In this document: positions 58,883 through 61,644 of the stretch, piece by piece
Numbering within the stretch: position 1 is the stretch's first letter
Layout: every line of letters starts with the position of its first letter
NCBI RefSeq assembly: GCF_003334305.1
Contig: NZ_QOWS01000016.1
DNA from: Escherichia coli
Lineage (GTDB): Bacteria; Pseudomonadota; Gammaproteobacteria; Enterobacterales; Enterobacteriaceae
Length of the DNA stretch: 64,000 nt
Reading direction: 5' to 3' (one strand)
Position numbers and translations under genes: made by a program
Notes under the pieces: generated by a model
Database searches by the model: none
What the model was told of the DNA's origin: nothing
Seen by the model: the letters and a program-made list of their open reading frames with translations, nothing else

Positions 58883-60541
58883 ATGATTCTTGAGCGCGTT
58901 GAAATTGTGGGTTTTCGCGGTATCAACCGTTTGTCGTTGATGCTGGAACAAAACAACGTCCTGATTGGGGAGAACGCGTGGGGTAAATCCAGCTTGCTGG
59001 ACGCCTTAACCCTGCTGCTATCGCCAGAATCAGATCTCTACCATTTTGAGCGCGACGATTTCTGGTTCCCGCCGGGAGATATCAACGGGCGAGAACATCA
59101 TCTGCATATTATTTTGACCTTCCGCGAATCGCTGCCAGGCCGACATCGGGTTCGCCGTTATCGGCCGCTGGAAGCGTGCTGGACGCCATGCACCGATGGC
59201 TATCACCGTATTTTTTATCGTCTGGAAGGGGAGAGTGCGGAAGACGGCAGCGTGATGACACTGCGCAGTTTTCTCGATAAAGACGGACATCCGATTGATG
59301 TCGAGGATATTAACGATCAGGCACGCCATCTGGTGCGTTTAATGCCGGTGCTGCGCTTGCGTGATGCCCGTTTTATGCGCCGTATTCGTAACGGCACGGT
59401 GCCAAATGTTCCCAATGTGGAAGTCACCGCGCGCCAGCTCGATTTCCTCGCCCGTGAGTTGTCCTCACATCCGCAAAATCTCTCTGATGGACAGATTCGT
59501 CAGGGACTTTCCGCAATGGTGCAGTTGCTTGAGCATTATTTCTCTGAGCAGGGGGCTGGACAGGCGCGATATCGTTTAATGCGGCGGCGGGCCAGCAATG
59601 AGCAACGAAGCTGGCGCTATCTGGACATCATCAACCGGATGATTGACCGACCTGGAGGGCGCTCGTATCGGGTTATTTTGCTCGGCCTGTTTGCTACTTT
59701 ATTGCAGGCAAAAGGCACATTGAGACTGGATAAAGACGCGCGTCCGTTATTGCTAATTGAAGATCCAGAAACCCGCCTGCATCCGATTATGCTTTCCGTT
59801 GCCTGGCATCTGTTGAATCTTTTGCCTTTACAGCGTATTGCTACCACCAACTCTGGCGAGCTGCTTTCGTTAACTCCAGTGGAACATGTTTGCCGCCTGG
59901 TGCGTGAATCTTCTCGTGTTGCCGCCTGGCGTCTGGGGCCAAGTGGCTTGAGCACCGAAGACAGCCGCCGCATCTCTTTTCACATTCGTTTTAATCGTCC
60001 GTCATCGCTGTTTGCTCGCTGCTGGTTGCTGGTGGAAGGGGAAACGGAAACCTGGGTTATCAATGAACTGGCGCGTCAGTGCGGACATCATTTTGATGCC
60101 GAAGGGATCAAGGTCATTGAGTTTGCCCAGTCCGGGCTAAAGCCACTGGTTAAATTTGCCCGCCGAATGGGGATTGAATGGCATGTACTGGTCGATGGCG
60201 ATGAAGCAGGGAAGAAATATGCCGCTACGGTACGCAGCCTGTTGAATAACGATCGGGAAGCCGAACGAGAACATTTAACGGCGTTACCGGCGCTGGATAT
60301 GGAACATTTTATGTATCGCCAGGGATTTTCCGATGTGTTCCACCGCGTGGCGCAAATCCCGGAAAATGTACCGATGAATCTGCGCAAAATTATCTCGAAA
60401 GCGATCCATCGCTCTTCCAAACCCGATCTTGCCATTGAAGTGGCAATGGAGGCCGGACGTCGTGGTGTGGACTCCGTACCGACGCTGCTGAAAAAAATGT
60501 TCTCACGCGTGCTGTGGCTGGCGCGCGGTCGCGCGGATTAA
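58883..60541 (+). CDS. ybjD: OLD-family protein: N-terminal ABC-type ATPase plus C-terminal Toprim nuclease domain
   Basis: 552 aa; Walker A GENAWGKSS, Walker B LLLIEDPE; C-terminal Toprim signatures LVEGETE and VLVDGDEAG. Confidence 0.85.
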   Translation: MILERVEIVGFRGINRLSLMLEQNNVLIGENAWGKSSLLDALTLLLSPESDLYHFERDDFWFPPGDINGREHHLHIILTFRESLPGRHRVRRYRPLEACWTPCTDGYHRIFYRLEGESAEDGSVMTLRSFLDKDGHPIDVEDINDQARHLVRLMPVLRLRDARFMRRIRNGTVPNVPNVEVTARQLDFLARELSSHPQNLSDGQIRQGLSAMVQLLEHYFSEQGAGQARYRLMRRRASNEQRSWRYLDIINRMIDRPGGRSYRVILLGLFATLLQAKGTLRLDKDARPLLLIEDPETRLHPIMLSVAWHLLNLLPLQRIATTNSGELLSLTPVEHVCRLVRESSRVAAWRLGPSGLSTEDSRRISFHIRFNRPSSLFARCWLLVEGETETWVINELARQCGHHFDAEGIKVIEFAQSGLKPLVKFARRMGIEWHVLVDGDEAGKKYAATVRSLLNNDREAEREHLTALPALDMEHFMYRQGFSDVFHRVAQIPENVPMNLRKIISKAIHRSSKPDLAIEVAMEAGRRGVDSVPTLLKKMFSRVLWLARGRAD

Positions 60542-61530
60542 CCGCGAAACATCGTGGCCATTTGTGGCTGAATAGCGTCGAGCATCTCATAGCGCCGACG
60601 GTATTCAGCCCGTTTTTTACTGGCGATTTCGGCAATCTCTTTTCGTGCTATCTGTGCTGGAAGGCGGTAATGGCGTTCAGCATCACATACGCCGCCAACC
60701 GATTCCCAGAAAGCGTTGTAATCGGCATGGATCTTGCCTTCTTTATCACGATAACGCAGGCTGCGGTAAATATGCGTTTCATTGCTGACGGCAATAATCT
60801 GCTCTACCTGCAAACGTTGGGCAAACAGACAGGCCGCTTCCATCACGAGGCGTTTGGGAAATAGCCCGTGGCAGGCTTTCGTCGCATTCTGGATTTCCTG
60901 ATGTGGAATTTCCCATTTTGCGCCTTGCAGTCCGCCAATAAACATCGTTCTTTTCCCCTGATATTCACACAGGGTAAACGTGATCTCTGCCAGAGGAATA
61001 CCTTCGCTGTTGCGAAACAGGATTGTGCTGTCACCTTCTTTATCCATTGAGATCATCATGGTCAGCTCAAGCGTGAACTGCTCGCCGTTTTTGCCTTCCA
61101 GTTTAGCCAGTTGCAGCCCGGGGGTATTCAAATATAAGCTGAATTCTTCCGCCGACATACATCCGCGGAGTAACGCATAATGGTAACGTAACGCCTCCAG
61201 CAATTGCTTACGGCTAAGATTCGCCGCAAGGTAAGGGCGATGCAGACGCACAGGCAGTCGCGGTTGGCGCGTTAACAACACATTGAGATTAGGCCAGTGG
61301 GAAAGTTCGTTCATCCACTCAACGCTTAAACGCGGCATAATCAACGAGCGCAGCAAAAATTTCTGGCGAAAACTACGGCGATGCCAGAATTTACCCGGCC
61401 GACACTGTCCACGTGCCAGACTAAGAAAAAGTGACAGGCTGCTGAGAGATTCAGATGGCGTAAAGGTCCGTTCAGTTAGCTGCGACATATTCATGAAATC
61501 AATGGTTATACATGACGTCGATTTCACCAT
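60538..61530 (-). CDS. ybjX: VirK/DUF535-family protein YbjX
   Basis: 330-aa maximal ORF; 3' end overlaps the ybjD 3' end by 4 nt (convergent). True start could be one of the internal Mets (MNMSQL). Confidence 0.8.
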   Translation of the reverse strand: MVKSTSCITIDFMNMSQLTERTFTPSESLSSLSLFLSLARGQCRPGKFWHRRSFRQKFLLRSLIMPRLSVEWMNELSHWPNLNVLLTRQPRLPVRLHRPYLAANLSRKQLLEALRYHYALLRGCMSAEEFSLYLNTPGLQLAKLEGKNGEQFTLELTMMISMDKEGDSTILFRNSEGIPLAEITFTLCEYQGKRTMFIGGLQGAKWEIPHQEIQNATKACHGLFPKRLVMEAACLFAQRLQVEQIIAVSNETHIYRSLRYRDKEGKIHADYNAFWESVGGVCDAERHYRLPAQIARKEIAEIASKKRAEYRRRYEMLDAIQPQMATMFRG

Positions 61531-61644
61531 TGCGTATCTTAACCAAACATCAATAGTGTGATTACTAACGTAAATTTTAGGGTTTTGTTGATATTTCGTT
61601 GAAGTTAATGACCCGGATTGGCATATGGAGTATTCAGAATATTT

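Follow-up and report, generated by a model that had tools for sequence, protein, structure and literature searches.

We conclude with high confidence that the ybjD–ybjX–macA region of the analysed window, a 64,000-nucleotide stretch of the Escherichia coli chromosome, combines a PhoP-activated ybjX promoter with a convergent overlap between ybjX and ybjD at a known junction. The E. coli ybjD/ybjX/macAB junction seen here is an ordinary one that has been described before; the stretch is found in 5425 of 5426 complete genomes, and the RefSeq annotation of a 100% identical genome agrees with the identities of ybjD, ybjX and macA. On the plus strand, ybjD (oldB; 58883–60541) is an open reading frame of 552 aa that encodes a solitary Class 1 OLD-family ATPase/Toprim nuclease and is flanked by aqpZ and ybjX in RefSeq. 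The VirK/YbjX-family (DUF535) gene ybjX (60538–61494, minus strand) encodes 318 aa counted from Met13 of the 330-aa annotation, or 316 aa if translation begins at Met15 (61488). Divergent from it, as the earlier note had stated, lies macA (61645–62760, plus strand, 371 aa), the first gene of macAB, whose ATG at 61645 is given by both the reading frame and RefSeq. The coordinates, boxes, conservation and protein fold were established here, while PhoP dependence comes from published work; binding of PhoP to the E. coli DNA is deduced from orthologous sites, from Reg-Seq and from the Shigella sequence, which is near-identical, the experiments being those of other strains.

PhoP boxes and the ybjX promoter

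The tie between VirK-family proteins and PhoPQ mentioned in the earlier note is borne out by PhoP dependence of ybjX published for Salmonella and Shigella and by two PhoP-like sites in E. coli. In Salmonella, DNase footprinting, S1 mapping and mutation of the boxes established that PhoP activates ybjX directly; the gene also has a PhoP-independent start there, so further promoters may exist (PMC3335776). Shigella ybjX is upregulated in low Mg2+, a response lost in phoP and phoQ mutants (PMC12562796), and its expression drops 25-fold in a phoPQ deletion strain (PMC5775216). For E. coli ybjX, Reg-Seq reported two PhoP-like sites together with H-NS/StpA (PMC7567609), its evidence for PhoP being bioinformatic matching of mutational footprints. 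General PhoP matrices overlook the E. coli sites (PMC2908699).

By eye, the earlier note had seen no convincing PhoP direct repeat in this region and had proposed a scan with the consensus (T/G)GTTTA-N5-(T/G)GTTTA. Scanning did reveal sites. A search for KGTTTA-N5-KGTTTA with up to three mismatches returned 175 matches in the window against 123 expected, and was replaced as too unspecific by a matrix derived from 36 PhoP boxes footprinted in Salmonella, a set from which those of ybjX had been excluded. This matrix, together with cross-genus alignment, located two degenerate boxes, a proximal one at 61539–61555 (minus strand) and a distal one at 61586–61602 (plus strand), ranking seventh and first, respectively, among 127,964 positions in the window. 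Both belong to a degenerate submotif and fit the consensus only with three mismatches. Of 200 simulated windows, three contained a pair of sites that each scored 13.43 bits or more within 100 nt, and 5.5% contained a site scoring 17.35 bits or more, the score of the distal box and the highest in the whole window. The pair of PhoP-like sites exceeds chance.

The proximal box, TATTGA-TGTTT-GGTTAA, is directly oriented, with 12 nt separating it from the −10 hexamer downstream, and in the alignment it corresponds to the footprinted Salmonella box GTATTGACGATTGGTTAAT. Its TTGA...GTTnA pattern is invariant in an alignment of 11 sequences (A1); in a second alignment (A2), where the Kluyvera copy-1 proximal box is degenerate, only G, TT and A are invariant. 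Mutation of this box lowered expression in Shigella (PMC12562796) and abolished it in Salmonella (PMC3335776), and by analogy it would be the essential activating site in E. coli. The distal box, TGTTGA-TATTT-CGTTGA, has the reverse orientation with respect to ybjX and is set off from the proximal box by 30 nt on the upstream side; its counterpart in the alignment is the footprinted box TTGTTTAGATACGGTTTAC of Salmonella, which is spaced by an equal 30 nt. When the Salmonella distal box is mutated, ybjX expression falls more than 8-fold (PMC3335776), and its E. coli counterpart would likewise boost ybjX activation.

The −10 hexamer TGAAAT (61526–61521, minus strand) was assigned from conservation and from a Shigella mutation that abolishes ybjX expression (PMC12562796). 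Its T, A, A and T and an upstream T are invariant across 9–11 genera or species, and the position of the TG at 61529–61528, which brings the whole part to 61521–61529, suggests an extended −10 element. In Escherichia, Citrobacter, Salmonella, Kluyvera and two further Enterobacteriaceae, the box cores, the −10 and the Met15 ATG are conserved while the spacers are variable. The arrangement, set in an intergenic region of 33% GC, is that of an "architecture II" promoter, with a direct box in the place of the −35 exactly 12 nt from the −10 and, 30 nt upstream, a second box with conserved cores and the best matrix score. Phosphorylated PhoP would bind the direct repeat at 61539–61555, which would substitute for a −35 element, the distal reverse box at 61586–61602 would raise ybjX output, and transcription would proceed from about position 61512. 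Activation of ybjX by PhoP is already known, and in E. coli it very probably operates through these two degenerate sites.

The Salmonella enterica ybjX (somA) promoter, also of architecture II (Zwir et al. 2012, PMC3335776), likewise has two boxes, the proximal one direct and 12 nt away from the −10, the distal one reversed and 30 nt upstream, with a leader of 25 nt to the conserved ATG and box sequences that align column for column with those of E. coli. Compared with Salmonella, E. coli has a distal box of greater degeneracy (TGTTGA/CGTTGA versus TGTTTA/GGTTTA), its −10 reads TGAAAT with an upstream TG rather than TTCAAT, and its core also accommodates the divergent macA promoter, which in Salmonella is located 504 nt upstream of macA, inside ybjX. 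The window carries exact counterparts of all motifs published for the Shigella flexneri ybjX–macAB locus (Coluccia et al. 2025, PMC12562796), namely TATTGA-5-GGTTAA, TGAAAT, the transcription start 18 nt past the annotated ATG, Met13/Met15 and the macA start at −73. That paper describes the proximal box only and leaves the ybjD overlap undiscussed.

A generic promoter/terminator scan of 59800–61800 gave match numbers at or below chance and missed both experimentally mapped promoters, because these are of the activator-dependent or extended −10 type. The single promoter-like site that it returned, at 61152–61181 (plus strand), was unsupported and was discarded. An Rfam scan of 60300–61900 (E ≤ 1) found nothing, and this interval therefore contains no known sRNA or riboswitch.

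Start codon of ybjX and the divergent macA promoter

The control region shared by ybjX and macA had been given as 114 bp (61531–61644), a length that is true only for the ATG of the longest ybjX reading frame at 61530; usable starts give 150–156 bp. By primer extension in Shigella, ybjX transcription was found to begin at a T that lies 18 bp downstream from the annotated ATG, and the Met codons occupy +19 and +25 of the transcript (PMC12562796). Mapped onto the window, this PhoP-dependent transcription start falls at 61512 (±1 nt, minus strand) and the two codons at 61494 (+19) and 61488 (+25), and transcription from about 61512 would leave a leader of 18–24 nt before Met13/Met15. Since the transcription start lies inside the annotated extension of the reading frame, the protein begins at Met13 or Met15. 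Met-to-Leu mutagenesis in Shigella located the beginning of translation at the same residues, and the M13L/M15L double mutation abolished YbjX (PMC12562796). RefSeq starts ybjX at Met13 (61494) and leaves 61505–61610 unannotated, and the Met15 ATG (61488–61486) is the sole invariant candidate start in the cross-genus alignments A1 and A2. The first 12 codons of the 330-aa annotation (61495–61530, minus strand) are a spurious N-terminal extension and really represent the ybjX 5′ leader and core promoter.

It is very improbable that the 330-aa annotation is correct after all, with a PhoP-independent upstream promoter producing a longer mRNA, the ATG at 61530 in use and a spacer of 114 bp. The frame is indeed open from 61530, in Citrobacter too, many database entries are 330 aa long (P0003, 4518 members), and an extra PhoP-independent start exists for Salmonella ybjX (PMC3335776). 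However, the Shigella double mutant loses YbjX (PMC12562796), the ATG at 61530 reads ATA in the E. albertii sequence of the alignment, and its TG (61529–61528) coincides with the conserved extended −10 position. Moreover, YbjX orthologues of other genera measure 315–317 aa, RefSeq picks Met13, and the first ~16 residues of the model are unstructured (pLDDT of 60 for block 1–10 and 84 for block 11–20). Initiation at Met13 or Met15 is thus the reading adopted throughout.

The proximal macA promoter (61560–61572, plus strand) comprises a candidate −10, GATTAC (61560–61565), read from the sequence, and a transcription start at A 61572, 73 nt upstream of the ATG, which was transferred from primer extension in Shigella (PMC12562796). 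Within this promoter, positions −33 to −17 fall in the proximal PhoP box and +15 to +31 in the distal one, and the −35 regions of the ybjX and macA promoters overlap (PMC12562796); one 60-bp core would house the two promoters back to back. As the boxes bracket the macA start, we infer that PhoP, when it occupies them, most likely hampers the proximal promoter of macA while activating ybjX.

A more far-reaching proposal is that the shared operator acts as a bidirectional PhoP switch, activating ybjX and shutting the proximal macA promoter so that the two are reciprocally expressed in E. coli, which we regard as a real possibility that falls somewhat short of even. The position of the macA start between the boxes and the overlapping −35 regions speak for it, as do PhoP binding upstream of macA and repression in Salmonella, to the extent that these are reported in citations of Nishino 2006. 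Conversely, a chromosomal macAB::lacZY fusion in Salmonella is induced by low Mg2+ in a phoP-dependent manner (PMC7446830), macA is missing from the Shigella PhoP regulon table (PMC5775216), and the Salmonella macA promoter lies elsewhere (−504, inside ybjX). A counterpart of this −504 promoter was sought in E. coli and rejected, the −10 CATACT aligning to CGGGGG and not being conserved. Neither macA promoter is conserved in the other genus, and results obtained in Salmonella and E. coli are therefore not transferable. Hindrance of the proximal macA promoter alongside ybjX activation remains our preferred reading for E. coli.

Within Salmonella itself, the direction of the PhoP effect on macAB is disputed, with repression (Nishino 2006, as cited) set against activation (PMC7446830).

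Convergent overlap of ybjX and ybjD

As the earlier note had read, ybjX and ybjD share their last 4 nt: the TTAA at 60538–60541 contains the ybjD stop TAA (60539–60541), and the reverse complement of 60538–60540 is the ybjX stop TAA. All 14 enterobacterial loci that were examined retain the overlap, as TTAA, CTAA or CTAG, and its geometry persists even where YbjX is only 48% identical; the collection scan, run with a single protein and exact peptide patterns, yielded 13 loci only, and the Salmonella, Kluyvera and C. freundii loci were obtained by a separate search for encoding contigs. Its retention is probably explained by the shared TA, where any change would impair the stops of the two genes at once. 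Convergent stop overlaps of 4 nt are common, and a second one, between amiD and ybjS (TTAG, 48150–48153), occurs 12 kb away in the window. The ybjD–ybjX overlap is probably for the most part a by-product of compact gene packing.

Because the stop codons are shared, no intergenic terminator exists and each transcript must end inside the partner gene, and a convergent transcriptional overlap (excludon) would result at the 3′ ends. The earlier note had held that transcription of each gene runs into the other, and RNA-seq supports this: ExcludonFinder lists ybjD–ybjX among 165 convergent excludons that are present in 50% or more of the 58 data sets from E. coli MG1655 (PMC12288877). Convergent excludons of that survey, such as amiD–ybjS with its identical 4-nt stop/stop overlap, have overlapping transcripts. 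Classical excludons are characterised by reciprocal expression, whereas the listing of ybjD–ybjX is based on transcript overlap.

RNA folding revealed a candidate intrinsic terminator of ybjD (60566–60618, plus strand), consisting of a hairpin (60566–60610), CG and a T6 tract (60613–60618), lying antisense within the final ~25 ybjX codons. It is conserved in Escherichia species and two Citrobacter strains and is weaker in Salmonella and C. freundii; terminator-like sites occurred only at chance frequency in the simple scan of 59800–61800. This hairpin may end the ybjD transcript. The palindrome CGCGG-ATTAA-CCGCG (60532–60546), whose centre is the overlap, was also considered as a bidirectional terminator and rejected; it folds in this strain, but neither strand offers a U-tract and other Escherichia do not preserve it.

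YbjD combines an N-terminal ABC-type ATPase with a Toprim domain at the C terminus and has no partner gene, as expected of Class 1 OLD proteins; it matches the PADLOC GajA/Old models at E = 7e-80, its orthologues carry recorded Pfam annotations of DUF2813, AAA_15 and OLD-like_TOPRIM, and its RefSeq product name is "ATP-dependent endonuclease". YbjD/OldB has been characterised and is cytotoxic on over-expression (PMC13261556). This toxicity, the transcript overlap forced by the shared stops, the detection of the pair in at least half of the 58 RNA-seq sets (PMC12288877) and the geometry conserved at 48% YbjX identity would all suit a functional excludon, in which PhoP-induced read-through from ybjX lowers ybjD, whether through collision or because RNase III cleaves the duplex. 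If this were true, envelope stress (low Mg2+, antimicrobial peptides, macrophages) would be coupled to the level of a toxic anti-phage nuclease. We nevertheless consider it unlikely. The 165 E. coli convergent pairs behave alike (PMC12288877), another 4-nt overlap (amiD/ybjS) is present in the same window, synteny within Enterobacteriaceae is expected anyway, DUF535 genes outside this family do not lie beside ybjD (Massilia loci), and those who studied ybjD found no grounds for connecting the two genes (PMC13261556). Compact gene packing remains the favoured explanation. A functional link between YbjX and YbjD, such as a two-gene defence system, was not supported either, YbjX having no PADLOC or NCBIfam match and DUF535 genes outside Enterobacteriaceae having no ybjD neighbour.

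YbjX and the VirK family

The assignment of ybjX to VirK/DUF535 was confirmed by a full-length match to Pfam PF04393 (E = 3.3e-102, model positions 2–280 of 281), and 1677 cluster representatives are related to YbjX at E ≤ 1e-3. A PDB profile search by sequence with the DUF535 alignment found no relative, and only fold comparison worked. The α/β fold of the structural model corresponds to that of GNAT proteins, and YbjX is thus predicted to adopt a GNAT-like acyl/acetyl-transferase fold. In contrast to the GNAT superfamily, it has an extra helical N-terminal region of ~110 residues, and the classical acyl-CoA pyrophosphate-binding GNAT motif Q/R-x-x-G-x-G/A, which follows strand β4, is not evident in the YbjX family, which has IGGLQG instead. 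The near-invariant G185 and Q188-G189 of IGGLQG would end the corresponding strand, and T203, G208 and P211 would fall in the following helices.

YbjX is a cytoplasmic protein that supports outer-membrane barrier function. VirK of Shigella (pINV) and Salmonella and the Klebsiella pneumoniae homologue (virK, PMC13109725) are DUF535 proteins whose genes, like ybjX, are directly activated by PhoP, and loss of VirK/YbjX family members increases outer-membrane permeability or decreases virulence. Single deletion of ybjX in Shigella has no detectable phenotype; in this organism ybjX phenotypes are masked by the paralogue virK on the plasmid. The envelope remodelling invoked in the earlier note stands as an association at the level of phenotype rather than of biochemistry. 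Reports on localisation differ, Shigella YbjX and VirK being cytoplasmic and the Klebsiella homologue being found in the outer membrane, without a change in lipid A (PMC13109725).

K-12-style records keep a 330-aa ybjX start that falls in the promoter, which is a matter of annotation hygiene and little beyond, and promoter analyses that use a "114-bp intergenic region" lose the ybjX −10 and transcription start. Searches with the textbook consensus overlook real PhoP sites of the degenerate submotif, and a matrix of footprinted sites combined with cross-genus alignment recovers them.

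Convergent 3' ends of ybjD and ybjX

The window is chromosomal DNA of E. coli, a species in which the ybjD-ybjX-macA locus is nearly universal: 5425 of the 5426 complete genomes carry 60300-61900 at an identity of at least 95% (5428 matching places in the collection, six of them on plasmid-labelled records; absent from a single genome). A RefSeq genome 100% identical to the window carries annotations for ybjD (ATP-dependent endonuclease), ybjX (VirK/YbjX family protein) and macA. According to the ORF list and raw sequence, ybjD occupies 58883-60541 (+; stop TAA, 60539-60541), ybjX ends on the minus strand at 60538 (its stop being the reverse complement of 60538-60540), and macA starts divergently on the plus strand with the ATG at 61645. 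The main points of the earlier note on this region are real; its ybjX start and spacer length, and the absence of PhoP boxes, needed correction. Since everything of substance about ybjD-ybjX-macA is already in print, we regard the ybjX finding as ordinary.

As noted earlier, ybjD and ybjX have their last four nucleotides in common on opposite strands (raw sequence exactly TTAA, 60538-60541). The overlap was found in 14 of the 14 enterobacterial loci fetched (Escherichia species, three Citrobacter strains, C. freundii, Salmonella, Kluyvera and two further Enterobacteriaceae), reading TTAA, CTAA (Salmonella, C. freundii) or CTAG (locus L011), despite YbjX identities of 48-58%; YbjD and MacA are at 81-91%. 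It may persist because mutating the shared TA would damage both stop codons together. The Kluyvera DUF535 gene has undergone tandem duplication, and the copy adjoining ybjD retains the overlap. The arrangement is common rather than special, as a second convergent pair 12 kb away, amiD (+, 47323-48153) and ybjS (-, from 48150), has the same four-nucleotide stop/stop overlap (TTAG, 48150-48153). Both pairs belong to a set of 165 convergent excludons detected in 50% or more of the 58 E. coli MG1655 RNA-seq data sets (PMC12288877), so that published transcriptomics supports the proposal that the ybjX and ybjD transcripts each run into the other gene.

A candidate intrinsic terminator for ybjD lies at 60566-60618 (+, ybjD-sense), 25-77 nt beyond the ybjD stop and within the last ybjX codons. 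It is a long predicted hairpin (GGCTGAATA...TATTCAGCC) with CG and T6 after it, the T-run being the antisense of a Lys-Lys AAAAAA. The hairpin is kept in Escherichia species and two Citrobacter strains, with weaker conservation elsewhere, and a terminator function is plausible. The perfect palindrome CGCGG-ATTAA-CCGCG (60532-60546), centred on the shared stops, folds on both strands, but it has no U-tract, is not retained in other Escherichia lineages and is probably incidental.

YbjX is evolving far more rapidly than either neighbour (60541-61488, minus strand; compared with loci L015, L017, L011 and L012). Between E. coli and Salmonella (L015), identity is 58% for YbjX, 90% for YbjD and 85% for MacA, and in two Enterobacteriaceae YbjX is only 48% identical to the E. 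coli protein, with YbjD still at 86%. The Kluyvera copies (L016, 2501-3454 and 3629-4585, between macA and ybjD) share 68% and 51% identity with E. coli YbjX; the 174-bp spacer separating them contains GTTGA repeats resembling additional PhoP half-sites. YbjX is GNAT-like in its fold. Residues near-invariant across the YbjX/DUF535 family include E151, G185, Q188, G189, T203, G208, P211, Y257 and W261, and the family shows no evident canonical acetyl-CoA loop motif. Loss of ybjX is reported to weaken the outer-membrane barrier and raise antimicrobial-peptide sensitivity, mainly when virK is also deleted (PMC12562796); YbjX/VirK is reported as cytoplasmic in Shigella and as outer-membrane for the Klebsiella homologue (PMC13109725). 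A solitary nuclease of the OLD family (Class 1), YbjD strongly matches the PADLOC GajA/Old models (E = 7e-80) without a GajB-like partner. A 2026 micropublication renamed ybjD oldB and described weak anti-phage phenotypes when its expression was induced (PMC13261556). Apart from their adjacency, no evidence was found that YbjD and YbjX are functionally linked.

Start of ybjX and length of the spacer

The 114-bp ybjX-macA control region described earlier (61531-61644) depends on the longest-ORF ATG at 61530 (330 aa), whereas the true start lies further downstream. In Shigella, primer extension showed ybjX transcription to begin at a T whose position is 18 bp downstream from the annotated ATG (Coluccia et al. 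2025, PMC12562796); mutation of the -10 TGAAAT abolished expression, and YbjX protein was abolished only in the double M13L/M15L mutant (PMC12562796). All motifs of that study locate exactly on the window sequence, placing on the minus strand the -10 hexamer at 61526-61521, the transcription start at ~61512, M13 at 61494 (+19) and M15 at 61488 (+25). The RefSeq start is M13, and 61505-61610 carries no annotation. In our alignments of the intergenic region (A1, 11 sequences; A2, 9 sequences), the M15 ATG is the only start that never varies between genera; Citrobacter has TTG at M13, and E. albertii has ATA in place of the annotated ATG, whose TG (61529-61528) occupies the extended -10 position and is conserved in that role. 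Together with orthologues of 315-317 aa outside Escherichia, the evidence for M13/M15 sets the ybjX and macA coding regions 150-156 bp apart.

PhoP boxes at the ybjX promoter

The suggested PhoP link of ybjX is correct, being published for Salmonella and Shigella, with PhoP-like sites in E. coli. In Salmonella, mutation of the proximal box (relative to ybjX) abolishes ybjX expression and mutation of the distal box lowers it more than 8-fold (PMC3335776). In Shigella, ybjX is induced by low Mg2+, induction is lost on phoP or phoQ deletion, and a proximal-box mutation lowers expression (PMC12562796); ybjX was down 25-fold in a phoPQ deletion strain (PMC5775216). Reg-Seq at the E. coli promoter identified two PhoP-like sites together with H-NS and StpA (PMC7567609), the latter two fitting the 33% GC of the intergenic region.

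The earlier note had reported no convincing PhoP direct repeat, yet two boxes exist. The motif scan it proposed was useless alone with the textbook consensus (175 matches in the window at up to three mismatches), but succeeded with a weight matrix for which Zwir et al. 2012 (PMC3335776, Table 1) supplied 36 DNase-footprinted Salmonella boxes, the two ybjX boxes being excluded. Scored at every window position on both strands (127,964 positions), it ranked the distal box first (61585-61603, +; TTGTTGATATTTCGTTGAA; 17.35 bits) and the proximal box seventh (61538-61556, -; CTATTGATGTTTGGTTAAG; 13.43 bits). A site as good as the top match occurred in 5.5% of 200 simulated windows, and a pair of sites no more than 100 nt apart, each scoring 13.43 bits or above, in 3 of the 200. 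The window holds seven sites at or above 13.43 bits, against 1.7 expected; other strong matches (13.6-15.4 bits) lie at 25964-25982 (-), 22390-22408 (-), 56718-56736 (-), 56233-56251 (+) and 43089-43107 (-).

As in the Salmonella ybjX promoter, the E. coli proximal box is direct and separated from the downstream -10 by exactly 12 nt, a reverse distal box lies 30 nt upstream of the proximal one, and a 25-nt leader precedes the conserved ATG. When the genera are aligned, both footprinted sequences published for Salmonella appear in its row, in register with the E. coli boxes. A1 shows invariant half-site cores (TTGA/GTTnA) and variable 5-nt spacers; A2 has fewer invariant box columns, owing to the degenerate proximal box of Kluyvera copy 1. 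According to Harari et al. 2010 (PMC2908699), the E. coli ybjX sites escape general PhoP matrices, which explains why none was seen by eye.

The macA promoter and PhoP

The macA transcription start mapped in Shigella (PMC12562796) falls on the A at 61572 (+), 73 nt upstream of the macA ATG. Relative to it, the proximal PhoP box spans -33 to -17 and the distal box +15 to +31, and PhoP occupancy would therefore be expected to hinder this macA promoter. The pair ybjX-macA does not figure among the 16 divergent excludons listed for E. coli (PMC12288877), consistent with back-to-back starts ~59 bp apart. The only sigma-70-like consensus match in 59800-61800, CCGACA-18-CATAAT (61152-61181, +), lies inside ybjX and points towards macA; this count is within chance expectation, and its position differs from that of the Salmonella internal macA promoter.

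For Salmonella macAB, PhoP repression is attributed to an earlier study as cited, and PhoP-dependent induction is reported in PMC7446830. Unlike the proximal start in E. coli and Shigella, the Salmonella macA start is 504 nt upstream of macA, inside ybjX. Its promoter, TTCAAA-17-CATACT (L015 2859-2893, -; compared with window ~61100-61150, +), is not conserved, the -10 CATACT aligning to CGGGGG in E. coli; conversely, the candidate proximal -10 of E. coli and Shigella, GATTAC (61560-61565), is not conserved in Salmonella. Because the macA promoters differ in place between genera, Salmonella PhoP-macAB results are not transferable to E. coli, and this promoter shift may underlie the contradictory reports on PhoP and macAB.
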